The notes: a model not told the origin generated them from the letters alone. A stretch of DNA of 64,000 nucleotides from Planctomycetota bacterium (GCA_021776775.1 JAJFFE010000145.1:30884-94883); one strand, 5' to 3'. Shown: positions 11,590 to 61,569, counted from the stretch's first letter. A program made the numbers and translations.

Positions 11590-12348
11590 TTGATACCTTG
11601 GGAACTGATCGAGCAAGCCGACATACCGAAGCAATCGTCACGGGCGGGGCAAGGCACGGAGATCTCCTCCAAGTCAAAGATCTCTCTCTTTCGTCGCGGT
11701 GACGAGTATTCGATCCGCGTCGACAACTGGGAGTTGATGAACAGCCGCGCGTTCTCCAGCGAGAAGGAGATCGCGTCGGCGGCGTGCCTGCGCATCACGC
11801 AGCGACCCGACAGTGCGGACCGGCCGCAACCGATGGTGCTCATCGGGGGGCTCGGTATGGGGTTCACACTCCGGACGGCGCTCGACAACTTGCCCGCGGA
11901 GAGCACCGTCATGGTGGCGGAACTCATTCCGGAAGTTGTCGAGTGGAACAAGAAGTACCTCGGTAAGTTCGCCGGCGAACCGTTGGCGGACCCGCGGGTC
12001 GAGGTCTACCTGGGCGACGTCGCCGACCGCATTCGTTCGCACCCGGGCAGCCACGACGCCATCGTGCTCGATGTCGACAACGGCCCGCACGCGAAGCCGA
12101 CCGATAGCCAAGGCTGGCTCTACTCCCACGACGGACTCGACGCGATCCACCACGCACTACGACCCGATGGCGTCTTGACCATCTGGTCGGCCGGGCCGAC
12201 GACGGGTTTCACGCAACGCGTGAAACGTCGAGGGTTCGAAGTCGAGGAGAGCCGCTGTCGCAGCCGAGGCGACAAGGGCAACTGGCACGTCATCTGGGTC
12301 GCGCAGCGCAAAGAAAAGAAGGTTCGGAAAGAAGAGACCGAAGAGTAG
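11590..12348 (+). CDS. spermidine/spermine synthase-like methyltransferase-fold protein
   Basis: LFRRGDEYSIRVDNWELMNSR...MVLIGGLGMGFTLRTAL. The start is uncertain: TTG 11590 with a GGAG Shine-Dalgarno, or track ATG 11488. Confidence 0.5.
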   Translation: MIPWELIEQADIPKQSSRAGQGTEISSKSKISLFRRGDEYSIRVDNWELMNSRAFSSEKEIASAACLRITQRPDSADRPQPMVLIGGLGMGFTLRTALDNLPAESTVMVAELIPEVVEWNKKYLGKFAGEPLADPRVEVYLGDVADRIRSHPGSHDAIVLDVDNGPHAKPTDSQGWLYSHDGLDAIHHALRPDGVLTIWSAGPTTGFTQRVKRRGFEVEESRCRSRGDKGNWHVIWVAQRKEKKVRKEETEE

Positions 12349-12409
12349 TCGCGCTGATCGAGGCGGGCCGATCTCGTGGGAAAGCCTCGTGGGAAAGCGC
12401 CGAGGCCGA

Positions 12410-12910
12410 CTACTCGCGAGAGTCGAGGAACTTCTTGAGGATCGCTGTGGATGAGCCCAAGGTGCAATCCAGAATCACCACCTCGATACCGAACTCTTCG
12501 CACACCGCCATCTCGACCGGCGGCAACGTGCCGTCCCAGTCCTTACCCTTGACGTAGTACGCCGGGCGTAGGCGCCGCAGAGACTCGTGGGTGCCGCGAC
12601 TGGCAATGTGCACGCCGGCGATCGCTTCCATGGCGTCGATCACCGTCGCCCGGTCGAGCTGCTCGAGCACCGGCTCACGCTTCTTGCGGCCGCGGATGTA
12701 GTCGTCGCACGCCAAGTTACAGATCACCGGCAGACCGAGCTTGGCGGCCAGGCGGAAGTACTCGACATGACCGCGGTGGATGGGGTCGAAACAGCCGTCG
12801 ACCATCGCGAACTTGGCGGGTAGATCGGCGGGAAGCGGCTCGGTTTCGGCATTCAAATCGTCGAAGATCAACGCGGAAGCTCCTCCGGGGTAAGCGAATG
12901 TTCGCCGCAT
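12410..12910 (-). CDS. cytidylyltransferase-like nucleotidyltransferase (TagD / RfaE domain II-like)
   Basis: MVDGCFDPIHRGHVEYF is the (H/T)xGH motif. Only the C-terminal 166 codons of the 510-aa track ORF are real. The remainder is antisense to the plus-strand gene. Confidence 0.7.
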   Translation of the reverse strand: MRRTFAYPGGASALIFDDLNAETEPLPADLPAKFAMVDGCFDPIHRGHVEYFRLAAKLGLPVICNLACDDYIRGRKKREPVLEQLDRATVIDAMEAIAGVHIASRGTHESLRRLRPAYYVKGKDWDGTLPPVEMAVCEEFGIEVVILDCTLGSSTAILKKFLDSRE

Positions 12911-13141
12911 TCTGGAACCCGGTCGGGGAGGTTGCAAGGCCACGGCCGCGGGCGGCGTCGAGATACACTGCCTGGGCGTCACGCCGCCACCGTGGTAGAA
13001 GACGTCGTGCTGCGCATGACTGCAGAAACACGCCTGTTGAGGAATCGAGTTGGGGTTTCGTTGCTCGGTAGATTCTTGAGAACCAAAGGGACCGCGGTCG
13101 CTCCGCACGAGCGCACGGGGCTTGTCAGCGGTGCCCGTCGC

Positions 13142-36575: not shown

Positions 36576-37454
36576 ATGGCCACCGCACTTCGCGTCCTCA
36601 CCAGCGGCGACGAGCCGCTCCTCGAATCGTTCCTCGGTGTCCGACCAGAGACCAGCATGTTTCTGCGATCGAACTTGCGGCTCAGCGGGATCGTCGATCA
36701 GGGTAAACCGTACCAAGGGACGTACGTTGGAGTGTTCGATGGCGACTCCATCTCCGGCGTGGTCATGCACGCGTGGCAGGGCAATCTCCTTTTGCAGTTG
36801 CCGCACTGTGAACGAGAGGCGATCGAACTCGCAGTTCATACGTCGGGACGTCCGATCGCCGGATTGGTCGGTCCGTGGGAGCAGGTGGAGGCCGCACGCC
36901 ACAGCCTAGGCTTGGTCGATCAAGCCACTGCGATGGACAGTTGCGAAGATCTGTTCACTCTCTCCTATTCTGACCTCGTCGTCCCCAGCGGTCTCGCCGA
37001 TGGCTCCCTCGTGTGTAGAGCTCCGCGTGTAGATGAGTTCACCCTGCTCTCCAAGTGGGGATTCGACTACGCCGTCGAAGCACTGAACTTCGAAGCGGGC
37101 GACGCGCTGGCCAAGAGCAGTCGAAAGTCGGTCGAACTGCAAGCGTCCAACGAGACGTTGTACATTCTCCTCGACCGAGGCACGCCCGTCTGTCGCACCG
37201 GGTTCAACGCGACCTTGCCGGACTCCGTTCAAATCGGTGGCGTTTATACGCCACCCAAATCGCGATCTCAGGGATTCGGACGGGCCGCAGTCGCCGGTTC
37301 TTTGATCGACGTCGCGCCACGCGGAGTGGTGAGTTCGCTTCTTTTCACCGACAAAGAGAATCACGCCGCGCAGCGCGCTTACAAGAGCTTGGGGTATCGT
37401 TGTATCGGCGAGTACGGATTGGTCCGATTCGCGGAACCGATCCGGCATCGGTGA
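36576..37454 (+). CDS. GNAT family N-acetyltransferase (two-lobed)
   Basis: C-terminal GFGRAAVAGSLIDVA...ENHAAQRAYKSLGY. Confidence 0.55.
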   Translation: MATALRVLTSGDEPLLESFLGVRPETSMFLRSNLRLSGIVDQGKPYQGTYVGVFDGDSISGVVMHAWQGNLLLQLPHCEREAIELAVHTSGRPIAGLVGPWEQVEAARHSLGLVDQATAMDSCEDLFTLSYSDLVVPSGLADGSLVCRAPRVDEFTLLSKWGFDYAVEALNFEAGDALAKSSRKSVELQASNETLYILLDRGTPVCRTGFNATLPDSVQIGGVYTPPKSRSQGFGRAAVAGSLIDVAPRGVVSSLLFTDKENHAAQRAYKSLGYRCIGEYGLVRFAEPIRHR

Positions 37455-37508
37455 GTGTCAGCCGGCCTATTCTTCGGTTACGATCCGCGCCGAGGAGGTC
37501 GATTGCGC

Positions 37509-38807
37509 ATGTCGTCAAGCATAGGACTGTGGATTCTATCGCTCGTTCTGAGTCAGGTTGCCACGCCGGATACAGCAGGCAGGCCTCCGACGCTGCCAAC
37601 ACTCGATGCTGAGACCTTCGATCGATGGTTGCGGTACGTACGTCCAACTCCGGAAGAGCTCGCGTACAGCAAGATCGATTGGCGTCCGGAACTGTGGCCG
37701 GCGCTCCGCGAAGCGAATGATCTCGACAAGCCACTTTTGATCTGGGTCATGAACGGCCACCCGCTGGGCTGCACGTGAAACAACGGCGTCATCGACCGGA
37801 AGGCTTCCTGGTCCAATATCGAGGTTCAACGCCTCGCTGAGCAATTTGTCCCCGTCGCCGACGAAGTCGGCCGTCTGCAACGTGATAACGATCCCGATTG
37901 CCTCTGGTTTCAAAACCTCGCTGAACAGGGTCACTACGGCGGCAGGGAGGGTCGCACCCGGCAAGGGATCTATCTCGCCGCTCCCGATGGCACGCTTCTG
38001 GGTTCGCTCAATCGGCGACAACCGGAGCGGGTGCTCGCCACGATGAAGAGTGCGCTCGCGCACTGGGAGACGCTGTCCACCGGCGAACGATCCTACGACG
38101 GTGATCTCGATGCGGAGAGCGACTCGATACGGCGCCTTGAAGAGTGGTACCCGGAAGGCGGAGCCACGCTCCGTGTGCACGCCAGAGACTTGCCGAGACC
38201 GAAAGCGCAATCACAGCCGAAAGGACGTCCCCGCCCCGACTGGCGATCGCAAGCGTGGAACTCGGACAACGTGTGGCTGACAAAGAGTGAGACCGAGCAG
38301 CTGGTGCCGTCGCCCCGGACTGTCGGAACTACGACGTCGGTGCCGCGCGACTTGGTCGTGCGCTTGGCGCGATTGAATCTAGTCGACAACGTTCGCGGCC
38401 AAACTCGTTCGTACTCACCCGAACACGTGGAGTTGGCAGAACTCACGGCGACGATCGTGGAGTCGCCGAACGATCATTTGGCAATAGAGTTCTCCGGCAA
38501 CATCCATCTCAGCGAAACCGGTAGTTGGAACCAGGGCCGCGGCGAGACCGAAGACGACACCAAGCGCGGATTCCGCGGGACACTCCTCGGACGAGGCCAA
38601 TACGATCCCAAACAAAATCGCCTCGTCGAGCTGGAACTCGTGTCGATCGGCGAGCGCTGGGGAGGGACTCGCTACAACGCCCGCGGGGGTGATCTAACGC
38701 CACACCCAATCGGGTTCGCGTTCACACTACTGGCAGAAGACGACCCCAGAGCTCGTATCGCGCCGACAGCCATCTGGCACTACCACTGGAAACCACCGTG
38801 GAAGTGA
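37509..38807 (+). CDS. secreted thioredoxin-fold (Thioredoxin_7/DsbD-gamma-like) protein interrupted by a single in-frame TGA at 37776-37778. Selenocysteine candidate, or otherwise a pseudogene.
   Basis: Track ORFs 37455..37778 and 38031..38807 are in the same frame, and there is no other stop between them. The thioredoxin-like domain spans the TGA: KPLLIWVMNGHPLGCT-TGA-NNGVIDRK...FVPVADEV...IYLAAPDGTLLGS. Signal peptide MSSSIGLWILSLVLSQVA. Confidence 0.45.
37794..37813 (+). ncRNA. candidate bSECIS-like hairpin 16 nt downstream of the in-frame UGA
   Basis: GACCGGA-AGGCU-UCC(U)GGUC is a 7-bp stem with one bulged U and a GG-containing apical loop. It does not match the E. coli fdhF geometry exactly. 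Confidence 0.3.
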
Positions 38808-38832: not shown

Positions 38833-39879
38833 CTAGGCCGGTACGGGGACCGCCGGAAGGCGGACGCGGAAAGCAGTTTGGCTGCCTTCCTCACTATCAA
38901 CCCAGATTTCTCCTCCGTGGCTCCAAAGAACGTGCTGGGCTGCTGCCCGTCGTAAGCCAAGCCCGCTCACGTAGGACACTGTGCCTTCCGCGAACGCCTC
39001 ACGGAGCTCGTCGGGGCCGAGGGTCGGCCCGGAATCGAGCACGGAGATAACGACGAACTCGTCCAAGGCTTCCGCCTTGATCGAGATGCGGCCGTCCGGG
39101 TTGCGCGCTAACCCGCCCTCGATCAGGGTCCGCAACACGAAGGTCATTTCGTCGTGATCCATGTCTGCACTCAAGTCGGCCGGAACGTCGGCCTGGATAT
39201 CGATGGGCGCGCCCGCGTACTCCATTGTCACAACGTGCAGAAAGTCGACGACGGACTCATGACCGAACGAAAACTGCAGCTGCTTCGACTTCAACGACGT
39301 CAACTTCAACACATAGCCGAACAACTCCTGCAGTGACTTCGCGCTGCGATAGGCGTCGCCGATAAACTCCAGCTGCTCGTCGGGCTGAAGTAGATCTCCC
39401 GACAGCAACAGCTCGAGGGGGCCGAGTATTCCAGCCATGGGTGCCGAGGTTCGGGAGCCTAGGCTCTCCATAACGCTAACCTGCAGTTCCTCCACTTCTT
39501 CGCTGGCGCGGAGACGCAGGTGAACGTGGATCTTGGCGACTAGCTCGTCGTGGTCGAACGGCTTCGTCATGTAGTCGTCGGCGCCCGAGTCGTACCCGGC
39601 CAGCCGCTCTGCCACCATCGCCTTTGCCGAAATCATGATGATCTTGGTATGTCGAAGGTTCTCGGTCTTGCGAATCCTCTCGCAGACCTCGTAGCCGTTC
39701 ATACCCGGCATCATGATGTCGAGCAGGACGAGCTCTGGCCGGTATCGATGGAGCTTCTCGATCGCTTCCGGGCCGTTTTCCGCGAGAATAATCTCGAAGT
39801 CGTCTTCGAGTAGCTCGACGAAAGTGGCTCGGTTGATCACGTCGTCGTCGACGCAAAGGATCTTCGCGCGCACCTTCAT
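38833..39879 (-). CDS. response-regulator receiver fused to histidine-kinase core (hybrid REC-HisKA-HATPase)
   Basis: ILCVDDD...DIMMPGMNGYEV...KPF (REC domain), followed by a dimerisation/ATPase-like region. Confidence 0.65.
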   Translation of the reverse strand: MKVRAKILCVDDDVINRATFVELLEDDFEIILAENGPEAIEKLHRYRPELVLLDIMMPGMNGYEVCERIRKTENLRHTKIIMISAKAMVAERLAGYDSGADDYMTKPFDHDELVAKIHVHLRLRASEEVEELQVSVMESLGSRTSAPMAGILGPLELLLSGDLLQPDEQLEFIGDAYRSAKSLQELFGYVLKLTSLKSKQLQFSFGHESVVDFLHVVTMEYAGAPIDIQADVPADLSADMDHDEMTFVLRTLIEGGLARNPDGRISIKAEALDEFVVISVLDSGPTLGPDELREAFAEGTVSYVSGLGLRRAAAQHVLWSHGGEIWVDSEEGSQTAFRVRLPAVPVPA

Positions 39880-57614: not shown

Positions 57615-58571
57615 ATGCGCCTATGGGTGGCTCGTCCAATAGTCGCCTTGTTGCTTGCCCTAGTTACCGTCGGTTGCTTGCCGTCGGTCCGCCACATCCC
57701 GATCACGACTTCCATCGATCCGAAGAACTCGCGGCTGCCGATGGAGTACCGCAGCGGAGAGATCCTGGCGTTGGCGAACGTCGATAGCACCGGCCCGTAT
57801 CGATTCAAGCTCGACACGGGGGCAAGCGTGATGGCCATCACGGCAAGCGCGCGGGACCGACTAAAGCTCGAAACCCGAAGCTTGCCGTGGCGATTGACCG
57901 GAGCGGGCGAGAGCCGCTGGAAGGTCATCGAGAGCGCACAGCTCACGGTAGTCTCACTCGGTGCGACCAAGTTCGAGGGCATCGACTGCTTGGTCTTGGA
58001 TGGCGTCGAAGACGACGGCTTCCTGGGTAACGGGCTGTTCGACGCCGGGGTCCTGGTGATGGACTTCCCGAACAACTCGTTCAACTTCCGGCCGACCGCA
58101 CCGCTCGACCTAGCAGACCCTAACCTGGTCCCTATCGTGTTCGAAGGTGGCGTCCCCATTTTTGAAGCCCGAGTCGACGATCAAACGGCACGCTTCACTC
58201 TCGACACCGGCTTCAACGGGTGGATCCGTCTACCCATCGAGTGGCGCGATCGCTTCGAGTACCGTAGCCGGCCCTATGCCGTCGACGTGCAAACGATTCA
58301 TCGCGTCCGTCGCGAAGAGTTCCGTCAGATCGACGGGGTCCTACGCGTTGGAACGCACGACCTCCTCAACCCGATCGTCGTTTTCGGAACCGGATCACCG
58401 CTGTTCGGTACCCGGGCCATGGAATACTTCGAGGTCACGCTCGACGCCAAGAATCGTCGCGTGGGTTTCGCCAGAAACTCTACGAATCCAATTGTCATCC
58501 CTCCGATCCAAGAGCTCATGCGGTTCGGATCGGTCTGGCTCCAACCTTCGGCGACAGAACGCCGACTGTGA
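57615..58571 (+). CDS. lipoprotein with retropepsin-like aspartic protease domains (two DTG motifs)
   Basis: Lipobox LVTVGCL. FKLDTGASVMAI and FTLDTGFNGWIRL. Confidence 0.5.
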   Translation: MRLWVARPIVALLLALVTVGCLPSVRHIPITTSIDPKNSRLPMEYRSGEILALANVDSTGPYRFKLDTGASVMAITASARDRLKLETRSLPWRLTGAGESRWKVIESAQLTVVSLGATKFEGIDCLVLDGVEDDGFLGNGLFDAGVLVMDFPNNSFNFRPTAPLDLADPNLVPIVFEGGVPIFEARVDDQTARFTLDTGFNGWIRLPIEWRDRFEYRSRPYAVDVQTIHRVRREEFRQIDGVLRVGTHDLLNPIVVFGTGSPLFGTRAMEYFEVTLDAKNRRVGFARNSTNPIVIPPIQELMRFGSVWLQPSATERRL

Positions 58572-58587
58572 GAGGAACGCTGCGAAC

Positions 58588-59778
58588 ATGAGCACGCTCA
58601 AGGGCAACGCGGTCATCGGTCAATCGGGCGGTCCCACCGCGGTGATCAATCAATCGCTAGTGGGTTGCGTGGAGGGCTTACGAACCTGCGACGCGATCGA
58701 GAAAATCTACGGCGCTCATCACGCCGTGCGCGGCATTGTCGACGGTGACTTGATCGACCTCACCGACGTGAGTGCCGAACGGCTCGAGCGAATCGCACAA
58801 ACGCCATCTTCCGCGTTGGGATCGAGTCGCGACAAACCGGACGAAGAGTACTGCCGAAACATCTGCCAAAGCTTCGAGAAGCTCAACATTCGGTACTTCT
58901 TCTACATCGGCGGCAACGACAGCTCGGACACCTGTCGTATCGTCAACGAAGTGGCAAAGAGTCAGGGCTACGAACTGCGCGCCTACCACATACCGAAGAC
59001 GATCGACAACGACCTCGAAGAGAACGACCACACTCCGGGGTACGGTTCAGCCGCTCGCTTCGTCGCGTGTGCGTTGATGGGGGACGCTCTCGACAACAAG
59101 GCGCTCCCGGGAATCAAGGTCGACGTCATCATGGGTCGTCACGCTGGTTTCCTCACCGCGGCAAGCTCCTTGGCGCGCACGTCCGACGACGACGGGCCGC
59201 ATCTGATCTACGTTCCGGAAGTCGCTTTCGACATCGATCGGTTCATCGCCGACGTCGACCGGGTGTTCTCGAGGTTGGGCCGCTGCGTGATCGCGACCTC
59301 CGAAGGCATTCACGACGCCGACGGAACCGCGATCGCGGCGAAGCTCGCGGCAGACGTCGAGAAGGACGCCCACGGAAACGTGCAGTTGTCGGGCAGCGGC
59401 GCACTCGGCGATTACCTCTCACAGCTCATCAAGGACCGCCTCGGCAAGAAGTTGCGGGTGCGGGCCGACACCTTCGGCTACCTCCAGCGGTCGTTCGCGG
59501 GCTGCGTCAGCGAAGTCGACCAGCGGGAAGCTCGAGCCGCGGGACGACGCGCGGCAGACCTAGCGATCGACGGGAGCGACGAAGGCTCGATAGCGATCCG
59601 TCGTACGAGCAACGATCCGTACCAAGTGTCCTACGATCGAATCGAACTCAGCGACGTCGCGGCGAAGACGCGAACCTTGCCGCTGGAATACATCGTCGAC
59701 GGCTGCGACATCGCGCCGAGCTTCCGGGAGTATGCGCTGCCACTGGTCGGGCCGCTGCCGATCATCGAGCACTTTTGA
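58588..59778 (+). CDS. pfkA: 6-phosphofructokinase (long PPi/ATP-dependent type)
   Basis: GAGAGGAA Shine-Dalgarno then ATG 58588. MSTLKGNAVIGQSGGPTAVIN, IGGNDS and GRHAGFLT motifs. The track ORF 58147 over-extends at the 5' end. Confidence 0.8.
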   Translation: MSTLKGNAVIGQSGGPTAVINQSLVGCVEGLRTCDAIEKIYGAHHAVRGIVDGDLIDLTDVSAERLERIAQTPSSALGSSRDKPDEEYCRNICQSFEKLNIRYFFYIGGNDSSDTCRIVNEVAKSQGYELRAYHIPKTIDNDLEENDHTPGYGSAARFVACALMGDALDNKALPGIKVDVIMGRHAGFLTAASSLARTSDDDGPHLIYVPEVAFDIDRFIADVDRVFSRLGRCVIATSEGIHDADGTAIAAKLAADVEKDAHGNVQLSGSGALGDYLSQLIKDRLGKKLRVRADTFGYLQRSFAGCVSEVDQREARAAGRRAADLAIDGSDEGSIAIRRTSNDPYQVSYDRIELSDVAAKTRTLPLEYIVDGCDIAPSFREYALPLVGPLPIIEHF

Positions 59779-59859
59779 AGCGCGGCGCCGGCCCAGGATG
59801 GACGATACAATGTAGAGGATTCCCGATCGTCGGAAATTCACTGCAAGGAGAACACTAGC

Positions 59860-61569
59860 GTGATTCGTATCATCCACCTGGGCCTAGTTTTGCTTACGCT
59901 CGGCACTCCTGCGTGGGCGCAGTTCACCGCCGTTGCCGGCGGCACCGCTACCCCAGGCCTGCCGGTTTCGGACACGAACCCGGTCGCGACGAGCACGATT
60001 TTCATCTCCGAGACTCTTTCGATCGCCGACATTCAAGTCGGCATCGACGTCACTCACACGTGGCGCGGTGACCTCGAAGTCGAGGTCACCTCTCCCGCCG
60101 GCACTACCTTGCGCCTGCACGATCATCAAGGAGGCAGCGGCGCCGATCTCATCCTGACGTGGTGGCAGTTCGGCGTTGCCAACGGCGACGAGGAGTACGA
60201 CTGCGCTTGCGAGATGCAGCCGGCGCCGGGGTCCTTCTTCGACTGGTTCGGCCAGTCCGCGTACGGCACTTGGACCATGACGGTCACGGACACCGTCCTA
60301 GACGATGACGGCACGTTCAACTCGTGGTCGGTGGCGATCTCCGACATGGGACCGCCGCTTCCGATCGAAGCGATCACCTGCAACCCGGAGCTCGGCACCG
60401 GCGTCGTCAATCTCAACTGGGGCAATCCACCGTCGGGATACGACGAGATCTTGGTACGTGTCAACGGAACGGTGATCGACACCATCGCGGGAATCTCGAC
60501 GACCTACTCGACCCCCGGGCTTTCACTGTCGACCATCTCGGACATTTGCCTGTCGGGTGTCCTCGACGGACTCGAATCACTACCGACGTGCTGTTCGACG
60601 TTTCTGCCCGGTCCGCCCTCCCTGTCGGCGTTGATCTTCGCCGGCGAGGGGCCCGGTGACATCGACAGCGCAGCCGCCCTCGAAGCGGCGCTCTCGGCGC
60701 AAGGAATCTCGGTCGATGTCGTCACCGGGTTGACTCCGTCGATCGTGGACACGCCGGCGAGTTTGTGGCTATGCCTCGGCACGTTTCCCAATGCCCACGT
60801 GATGACTCAAGCGGAAGGCGGACTGGTTCGCGATCTCGTCGTGGCCGGGATCCCGCTCTACGTCGAAGGGGCTGACACCTGGGGATTCCACCCCGCGACG
60901 CCAATGTGGCAAGTCGACGGCGTGGCAGACTTCGAAGCAGAGGACGGAGACGACTCGCTGGCCGTCTTGGTCGGGGCCGACTTCGCGGGCCAATCGTTTG
61001 CGGATTTGACGGCGGAGTACGACCACGACCAACCCGGGAGCGACTGGACGGATCGACTGGTACCGGCCATCAACGACATTGCCGGTCCTGAATCAGGCGT
61101 GATCTGGCGCAGCGAGGCAGCTCCGGGCGGAGCGGGATACGACGTCGGCGTCCTTTACGATACGGTAGCGCCGTTCGGCCGGGTGATCGCGCAGTCGTGG
61201 GAGTTCGGCGGGTACTCCGGAGATCAAGCCGAGGTCGCCGCTCGCTACGTCGAGTTTCTCGGCCAGGCGAAGCAACCGTCCGGGGTGCACTTTCTGCGCG
61301 GCGACTCCAACGGCGACGGATCGTTCAACATCGCAGATGCGGTTTCCACGCTCGCCTTGCTGTTCACGCTCGGCGCGCCGGTGGTCACGTGCTTGGACGC
61401 GGCAGACGCCAACGACGACGGTCAAGTCGACATCGGCGACCCTATCTTCACGCTCAGCGCTCTGTTCATCAGCGGCGCACCACTGCCGTACGCCCCTGGC
61501 CCCACCGGATGTGGACTCGACACGACCGCCGACGCCATCGACTGCGCGTTCTTCCTCGGCTGCTTCTAA
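59860..61569 (+). CDS. secreted protein with proprotein-convertase P-domain, FN3-like Cys module and C-terminal dockerin plus Cys-rich tail
   Basis: AAGGAG Shine-Dalgarno then GTG. Signal peptide. VTHTWRGDLEVEVTSPAGTTLRLHD is a P-domain. The C-terminus is GDSNGDGSFNIADA...DANDDGQVDIGDP...CGLDTTADAIDCAFFLGCF. Confidence 0.65.
   Translation: MIRIIHLGLVLLTLGTPAWAQFTAVAGGTATPGLPVSDTNPVATSTIFISETLSIADIQVGIDVTHTWRGDLEVEVTSPAGTTLRLHDHQGGSGADLILTWWQFGVANGDEEYDCACEMQPAPGSFFDWFGQSAYGTWTMTVTDTVLDDDGTFNSWSVAISDMGPPLPIEAITCNPELGTGVVNLNWGNPPSGYDEILVRVNGTVIDTIAGISTTYSTPGLSLSTISDICLSGVLDGLESLPTCCSTFLPGPPSLSALIFAGEGPGDIDSAAALEAALSAQGISVDVVTGLTPSIVDTPASLWLCLGTFPNAHVMTQAEGGLVRDLVVAGIPLYVEGADTWGFHPATPMWQVDGVADFEAEDGDDSLAVLVGADFAGQSFADLTAEYDHDQPGSDWTDRLVPAINDIAGPESGVIWRSEAAPGGAGYDVGVLYDTVAPFGRVIAQSWEFGGYSGDQAEVAARYVEFLGQAKQPSGVHFLRGDSNGDGSFNIADAVSTLALLFTLGAPVVTCLDAADANDDGQVDIGDPIFTLSALFISGAPLPYAPGPTGCGLDTTADAIDCAFFLGCF

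Follow-up and report, generated by a model that had tools for sequence, protein, structure and literature searches.

An in-frame TGA in a Planctomycetota gene is probably a selenocysteine codon conserved across a widespread family of thioredoxin-fold proteins

Introduction

When a reading frame is interrupted by a single TGA, is the gene broken, is it two genes, or is the codon read as selenocysteine (Sec)? This question is raised by a locus in a 64,000-nucleotide stretch of DNA from a Planctomycetota bacterium (GCA_021776775.1 JAJFFE010000145.1:30884-94883), referred to throughout as the window. Positions 37509-38807 on the plus strand form a single frame of 432 codons, and the open reading frame (ORF) list and direct translation agree that its sole internal stop is a TGA at 37776-37778, codon 90. 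The original prediction, which left the choice between a selenoprotein and a fresh pseudogene, described two ORFs (37455..37778 and 38031..38807) in a common frame with only this TGA between them, and both the ORF list and the translation bear this out. The sequence around codon 90 reads ...KPLLIWVMNGHPLGCT[TGA]NNGVIDRK...FVPVADEV...IYLAAPDGTLLGS, with the codon for Cys88 (TGC, 37770-37772) two residues ahead of the TGA. In the public NCBI record and in a Logan assembly, the gene is represented by two proteins without names, one of 89 aa (P0121, window positions 37509-37778) and one of 254 aa (P0001, 38043-38807). Residues 91-178, which are the most conserved part of a thioredoxin-fold domain, are left unannotated in public records.

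Here we present a comparative analysis of this locus. We find it very probable that 37509-38807 is one intact gene that encodes a 432-residue exported selenoprotein, with the UGA decoded as Sec through a selenocysteine insertion sequence (SECIS) in the mRNA. The complete coding sequence would then comprise 432 codons with Sec at position 90 and would end at a true stop, the TGA at 38805-38807.

Results

The TGA is conserved at one column across the family

A set of 80 loci, each from a different GTDB species, was assembled with search patterns taken from C-terminal motifs. The patterns are independent of the Sec site and the sample is therefore unbiased towards it. By their labels, about 60 of the loci belong to Planctomycetota and 19 to Armatimonadota or Fimbriimonadia, with 1 unassigned. 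At every locus (80/80), tblastn matches crossed residue 90 in one frame and the codon at that column was TGA, in the context W-A-M-N-G-H-P-x-x-C-x-[TGA]-N-N-G. In the 80-sequence nucleotide alignment that starts at this codon (alignment A2), columns 1-3 are accordingly an invariant T, G and A. An independent Logan assembly of the same sequence (SRR15505515) carries the identical TGA. The original prediction had proposed that an ordinary codon in orthologs would point to a nonsense mutation in this strain; the outcome was the opposite, and together with the Logan assembly it supports the selenoprotein option.

Searches with protein sequences found the same boundary from both sides. The read-through protein returned 452 homologs, nearly all of 310-335 aa and limited to the part 3′ of the TGA; homologs that begin just past the TGA are what would be seen if this codon had halted gene callers in every genome. 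The 89-aa N-terminal fragment, used in a word-index search, returned only itself. An exhaustive phmmer search with this fragment against 1.84 billion representatives matched 892 cluster representatives, and among the best 150 of these, 147 stop one residue short of the column. With a profile built on the N-terminal domain, column-spanning proteins would be expected to rank first; its best 114 new matches included 69 proteins that end at the column, about 40 that start after it and only 4 that span it. The four spanning proteins have W, W, C and L at the column. With at least 892 clusters at 50% identity and at least 285 GTDB species matches, the family is spread widely through Planctomycetota and Armatimonadota. 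Family fragments were also seen in metagenome-assembled genomes (MAGs) that NCBI labels as Verrucomicrobiales (P0195) and Candidatus Paceibacteria (P0290); P0195 suggests that the family reaches across the Planctomycetes-Verrucomicrobia-Chlamydiae (PVC) group, and P0290 is more likely a binning error.

The non-TGA forms found at the column were TGG, Arg, Leu and TGC, every one of them a single-nucleotide neighbor of TGA and each confined to isolated relatives. Cys is rare but present, in L003/P0064 (S-T-C, codon TGC) and in P0279 (C-T-C). Sec outnumbers Cys in the family by more than 50 to 1. Trp (TGG), Arg or Leu was observed at L002:2035-2037 and in P0273, P0274, P0133, P0243 and P0272. The L002 gene keeps a perfect SECIS hairpin despite its non-TGA codon, so the codon may have changed very recently, or the base may have been misread in contigs that are short and thinly covered. 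P0243 (C-G-R, 407 aa) has lost several invariant motifs as well and may be a non-catalytic paralog. The spacing ahead of the Sec codon also varies in three N-terminal fragments (P0257, P0244 and P0205), where the forms seen are C-D-T-[stop], which would give CxxU, G-E-P-G-T-D-C-T-[stop], which has a five-residue insertion, and N-G-N-P-C-G-F-V-[stop], in which the Cys has moved. The redox loop is therefore evolutionarily plastic.

The frame beyond the TGA is conserved

In 83 aligned sequences, little or no variation was seen in N91, N92, G93, R97 and W101 or in the ADEV, E-x-G-H-Y-x-G-R and T-R-Q-G-x-Y that follow, and all of the invariant family residues downstream of the TGA are intact in the window protein. 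The next in-frame ATG, GTG or TTG lies 85 codons past the TGA in the window and up to 91 codons past it in relatives. Because the conserved residues precede this start codon, separate initiation cannot yield them. In 31 of the 83 family genes, the window's included, TGA is also the true terminator, and TGA is therefore not reassigned in these organisms. By comparison across the family, the frame past the TGA continues under purifying selection, and TGA 37776, whose conservation the same comparison establishes, would be a conserved Sec codon. The intact and conserved downstream frame likewise suggests that UGA is decoded as Sec in the window's own genome.

A hairpin downstream of the TGA is constrained at the RNA level

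The sequence GACCGGAAGGCUUCCUGGUC at 37794-37813 (+), whose first base is the 16th nucleotide after the TGA, can form a hairpin in three near-isoenergetic conformers. The minimum has 6 bp and an 8-nt loop (-8.5 kcal/mol), the second has 8 bp, a bulged U and a GGC loop (-8.3 kcal/mol) and the third has 7 bp, a bulged U and an AGGCU loop (-8.1 kcal/mol). The last of these is the hairpin described in the original prediction, and it is real as one conformer among the three.

The helix was tested explicitly in the family by specifying the structure by hand, with columns 19-26 of A2 paired to columns 30-37. The hairpin at 37794-37813 takes up columns 19-38 of this alignment. We found that 83% of cells were paired in this helix, compared with 25-48% when the 3′ partners were slid, and that in the best register 6-8 of 8 pairs formed in 72 of 80 sequences. 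The register of the lower stem is set by column 22. All 53 sequences with A at this column form a perfect stem, CCAGRC/GUCUGG, of 7-8 bp, and in all 20 sequences with C, among them the window, the 3′ strand slips by one nucleotide and U34 is bulged (register B; U37809 in the window). A single pair, 26-30, covaries (GC in 33 sequences, AU in 19 and GU in 4). The window itself keeps the helix through changes on both strands, with GGAA/UUCC in place of AGAC/GUCU. Mean minimum free energy (MFE) was -12.7 kcal/mol for the hairpin versus -8.5 kcal/mol for other in-frame segments taken from these genes, and the hairpin value was the lower one in 96% of genes.

Synonymous codon use provides the strongest evidence for the hairpin because it is independent of amino-acid conservation. 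At position +6 after the TGA, Ala is encoded by GCC in 52/52 cases, compared with 37% elsewhere in the same genes. Arg at +7 is encoded by AGA or AGG (AGR) in 59/81 cases (73%, against 7.1% elsewhere), Arg at +8 by CGG in 56/56 (against 23.5%) and Val at +10 by GTC in 66/70 (against 46%). The comparison indicates that this hairpin is under selection at the level of RNA.

We then compared the hairpin with a published model of the bacterial SECIS (bSECIS), in which the loop is 3-9 nt and starts with G, the stem is 4-16 bp, the distance from UGA to loop is 16-37 nt and the MFE is at or below -7.5 kcal/mol (PMC13188914). The apical loops of the family, GUC, GGUCG and GGC (3-5 nt), start 22-23 nt after the UGA, and the family falls within all four constraints. 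For the window, the energies of -8.5 to -8.1 kcal/mol and a loop that begins 21-23 nt after the UGA are within the limits, and the bulged conformer fits the model. A G in the first two loop positions is found only in the window conformers that lie 0.2-0.4 kcal/mol above the minimum (GGC and AGGCU).

The SECIS of E. coli fdhF resembles the family element in being a hairpin within the coding sequence just 3′ of the UGA, in its GGUC apex (GCA-GGUC-UGC in fdhF, GAC-GGUC-(N)GUC in the family consensus) and in a bulged U, which the family has in register B (20 species, the window included). It differs in that its apex starts 18 nt after the UGA rather than 22-23 nt, whereas the family stem is shorter (6-9 bp) and two thirds of the family lack the bulge. 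The window additionally has GGAA/UUCC as its upper stem and GGC or AGGCU, not GGUC, as its loop. The earlier remark that the hairpin is not an exact match to fdhF was thus correct, yet the element fits the general bacterial model.

Selenocysteine machinery adjoins family genes in two genomes

Two of the loci place components of the Sec pathway next to a member of the family. In L022 (Armatimonadota), a tRNA-Sec with anticodon TCA at 2262-2352, called by ARAGORN and matched by Rfam RF01852 at 79.1 bits, lies 3.8 kb upstream of the family gene. No sel genes were found near this tRNA-Sec, which is flanked by histidine-phosphatase and 5-enolpyruvylshikimate-3-phosphate (EPSP)-synthase genes and housekeeping ORFs. 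In L082 (Planctomycetota), a selD homolog at 12068-13000, about 5 kb downstream of the family gene and 39% identical to E. coli SelD, has its own in-frame TGA at the canonical Sec position of SelD (...SSCAG[TGA]ASKLGP). This Planctomycetota MAG therefore carries at least two selenoprotein genes side by side. When E. coli SelA, SelB and SelD were used as tblastn queries on the window and on every locus, only the L082 selD and two weak GTPase matches emerged. From the tRNA-Sec of L022 and the Sec-type selD of L082, we conclude that family-bearing genomes decode UGA as Sec.

The putative Sec lies in the active-site loop of a thioredoxin fold

As a stand-in for the window protein, we modeled the structure of a relative with 43% identity whose codon at the column is TGG (P0003). 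The AlphaFold2 (AF2) model had a predicted local distance difference test score (pLDDT) of 87.5 and a predicted template modeling score (pTM) of 0.85. It contains a thioredoxin fold (beta-alpha-beta-alpha-beta-beta-alpha) that spans the Sec site, and in the window this domain covers approximately residues 60-190 (37686..38078, +) across the TGA. The Sec position falls between beta1 (LLIWVM) and alpha1, which is the place of the redox motif in thioredoxin-fold proteins. No CxxC or CxxS is present at the N-terminus of alpha1, where the motif is instead C-T-U-N-N-G (C-x-U).

Searches with the window protein, in which U was written as C, gave 0 families at E<=1 in Pfam and 0 families at E<=1 in NCBIfam release 20.0. 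Sub-threshold matches to Pfam Thioredoxin_7 (PF13899) were found in 10 of 28 relatives, with a best E of 0.0013, and none in the window protein. A profile search of PDB sequences gave AGR2 at a non-significant E of about 1, with the Sec on the Cys of C-P-H-S, the first Cys in terms of CxxC, and hhalign against E. coli DsbD-gamma gave a probability of 10.8%, with Cys88 on the second Cys of C-V-A-C. For the C-terminal domain, Foldseek against the PDB returned nothing significant.

The closest folds are of the Thioredoxin_7 type (PF13899), namely the DsbD C-terminal domain, PDB 3f9u, AGR2 and AGR3. Compared with these, the family has C-x-U followed by N-N-G in place of CxxC or CxxS, and its loop from beta1 to the redox site (M-N-G-H-P-x-x) is 3-5 residues longer. 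It also adds the invariant E-x-G-H-Y-x-G-R and T-R-Q-G-x-Y and carries a fused beta-rich domain of about 240 residues that is absent from those proteins. In the window this C-terminal domain (38079..38804, +) contains the invariant motifs RDLP, AWNxD, DxVRGQ and GxRxGxTxxN and has no detectable known family.

Sec is the only near-invariant redox residue (81/83). At the Cys88 position, the 83 aligned relatives have Cys in 76, Q in 5, R in 1 and S in 1, and Cys88 is present in about 82% of the 147 representatives that end at the column; Cys131 is found in 65/83. Most family members also begin with a hydrophobic, signal-peptide-like sequence, and in the window a probable signal peptide, MSSSIGLWILSLVLSQVAT, is encoded at 37509..37565 (+).

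Gene structure and genomic context

A Shine-Dalgarno-like GAGGAGG at 37492..37498 (+) was read from the sequence 10 nt ahead of the ATG at 37509, and its position favors this ATG as the start over the GTG at 37455. Upstream lies an acetyltransferase-like gene (36576-37454; weak PF00583 match) whose stop, TGA 37452-37454, is in the same frame as the putative selenoprotein gene. One frame would thus contain three TGAs with three outcomes, stop, Sec and stop, and the conserved hairpin follows only the middle one. Downstream, a convergent gene on the minus strand (38833-39879) encodes a response-regulator receiver domain fused to HATPase_c, and its stop is 26 nt from the stop of the selenoprotein gene. 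This gene is not conserved as a neighbor at other loci. Neighborhood clustering found no conserved gene neighbor at the 80 loci, where the commonest neighbor occurred in 4 loci and antisense ORFs in high-GC DNA are a confounder. Gene context therefore gives no hint of function.

A scan of the window for TGA-interrupted coding frames yielded no convincing second selenoprotein. One candidate, 58114-61569 (+) with a TGA at 59776, was rejected as two adjacent genes, the first of which ends ...PLPIIEHF* and the second of which has its own signal peptide.

Discussion

Alternative explanations for the TGA

Several observations weigh against a Sec-decoded gene and should be set beside the evidence for it. 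Neither selA, selB, selD nor tRNA-Sec was found within the 64-kb window by tRNA search, Rfam or tblastn, and the window contains no tRNA and no Rfam family at the gathering threshold. The window hairpin considered alone is within chance (z = -1.29; 27/200 shuffles fold equally well) and at -8.5 kcal/mol stands at the weak end of the family; its significance comes from comparison with relatives only. Its minimum-energy 8-nt loop, AAGGCUUC, lacks a G at both of its initial positions. RNAalifold predicted no consensus structure for the 80-sequence alignment A2 from the TGA, a result that is probably due to the two stem registers. The shuffle, Fisher and codon statistics ignore kinship among the sequences. 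In the structure model of P0003, residues 71-80, the Sec loop, have pLDDT < 50 because few database sequences cover that stretch. The original prediction placed the stop exactly at the redox motif, which holds for the topology, in that the codon lies in the beta1-alpha1 loop; on the residue register relative to CxxC, the two weak alignments disagree. Finally, about 18% of family representatives lack Cys88.

Could the TGA be read through without selenium? The whole genome might use TGA for another residue, for example Trp or Gly, or Cys or Trp might be inserted by a near-cognate tRNA at a leaky stop stimulated by the hairpin. A few relatives do encode Trp (TGG) at the column, and the missing Sec machinery in the window fits this as well; however, a codon that terminates 31 of 83 family genes, including that of the window, is not one that has been reassigned. 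A tRNA-Sec and a Sec-type SelD adjoin the family gene in two genomes, the site is near a Cys in the active-site loop of a thioredoxin fold, the hairpin agrees with a bSECIS in position, loop and energy, and Cys is among the residues found at the column in the rare full-length forms. We consider read-through of this kind very unlikely, although it survives better than the other alternatives.

A slightly less probable alternative is that the TGA is a true stop everywhere, and that the locus encodes two proteins, a conserved short N-terminal one and, after it, a C-terminal one with its own initiation. Gene callers give exactly this split in hundreds of assemblies, and in 33 loci a GTG, ATG or TTG occurs only 4 codons past the TGA. 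Against this, the next start is 30-91 codons on in many other loci, and the stretch between, which in the window is 85 codons, is the most conserved of the family. Even where a start is close, the N-N-G-V between the TGA and the nearest possible start is invariant or nearly so. Two genes would also cut the thioredoxin fold within its active-site loop and would leave the synonymous-codon constraints of the hairpin unexplained.

A fresh pseudogene, in which the TGA would be strain-specific and due to a recent nonsense mutation or to a sequencing or assembly error, has the lone stop in an otherwise intact gene, the two hypothetical proteins of the public record and the evident mutability of the codon (TGG, Arg, Leu and TGC in isolated relatives) in its favor, but it is refuted to the point of being barely conceivable, since the TGA column shared by 80/80 species-level genomes and 147/150 cluster representatives, together with the independent assembly SRR15505515, excludes a nonsense mutation or sequencing error, the invariant downstream residues are all intact in the window, and the differing sequences of the 80 loci exclude an artefact of one source.

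Proposed mechanism

We therefore return to the reading in which UGA 37776 encodes Sec. The hairpin at 37794-37813 of the mRNA would act as a bacterial SECIS, with its apex about 23 nt after the UGA, and would bring SelB with its Sec-tRNA(Sec) to the ribosome. No such hairpin accompanies the second TGA, at 38805, which is the real stop. Within the protein, Sec in the beta1-alpha1 active-site loop would serve as the redox nucleophile of an exported oxidoreductase and react with, for example, a disulfide, sulfenate or peroxide substrate. Cys88, the candidate resolving residue, would usually resolve the intermediate as a C-x-U selenenylsulfide, after which an external reductant would recycle the enzyme, and the C-terminal domain may provide the substrate site. 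Because Cys88 is missing in about 18% of the family (in variants such as Q-T-U, E-T-U and H-T-U), the C-x-U selenenylsulfide is not a universal mechanism.

The insertion of selenium itself, the export of the protein and its chemistry are what we infer from the sequence. We suggest that the protein is probably an exported selenol/thiol oxidoreductase, and put the more specific proposal, a redox enzyme that uses Sec as its nucleophile, at roughly even chances. With its many invariant residues (His, Tyr, Arg, Gln, Asn and Trp) and its dedicated second domain, the protein looks more like an enzyme with a pocket for a particular substrate than like one that exchanges disulfides in general.

Relation to catalogued selenoproteins

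A 2026 review sorts prokaryotic selenoproteins into 119 families and subfamilies, and every entry is defined by a model from Pfam, NCBIfam, TIGR, PTHR or cd (PMC13188914). The window protein matched none of the 119 by Pfam or NCBIfam; cd and PTHR models were not searched directly. The original prediction called the C-x-U spacing unusual, and this is correct, although the spacing is not unprecedented: the same table gives it for four families, Sec.1, rhodanese form 3, UshA-like proteins and ferredoxin-thioredoxin reductase, of which one, Sec.1 (PF13192), is thioredoxin-like (PMC13188914). Like known selenoproteins, the family would have its Sec in a thioredoxin-like redox loop and decode it through a hairpin just 3′ of the UGA. 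Unlike the catalogued families, it combines a signal peptide, a thioredoxin domain and a novel beta domain in about 410-430 aa. In the full-text literature on selenoproteins of Planctomycetes, Planctomycetota and Armatimonadetes we found no description of the family; however, an earlier one is possible, and one "hypothetical" candidate listed in a Planctomycete (PMC4807772, S9 Table) could be a member. Neither the way in which the UGA would be decoded nor the class of fold is out of the ordinary. New here are the family itself, which we did not find catalogued in any source checked, its architecture and its near-exclusive use of Sec.

The scarcity of Cys forms offers a plausible reason why the family is uncatalogued. 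The authors of deep-Sep state that their method may miss selenoproteins without Cys homologs (PMC12013277), and the family exposes this blind spot in discovery methods that need such homologs.

Significance

New bacterial selenoprotein families are reported regularly, which limits what one more would mean. In this case, hundreds of public assemblies, among them the record of the window, show the gene as a pair of "hypothetical proteins" with its 80-90 most conserved residues missing from the annotation, and all of these records would be corrected by a family model that places Sec at the column. If our reading is true, the family joins a C-x-U site, accompanied by invariant His, Tyr, Arg and Gln, to a beta domain without known relatives. 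A large family in which Sec exceeds Cys by so wide a ratio is a natural test case for Sec-specific roles. It is about an even bet that this is an undescribed and widespread family, almost wholly dependent on Sec and perhaps missed by pipelines built on Sec/Cys pairs, that may perform chemistry Cys cannot do and may help its hosts to keep the Sec trait. The envelope biology of Planctomycetota and Armatimonadota is poorly understood, and the family would add to it what is probably an exported redox enzyme.

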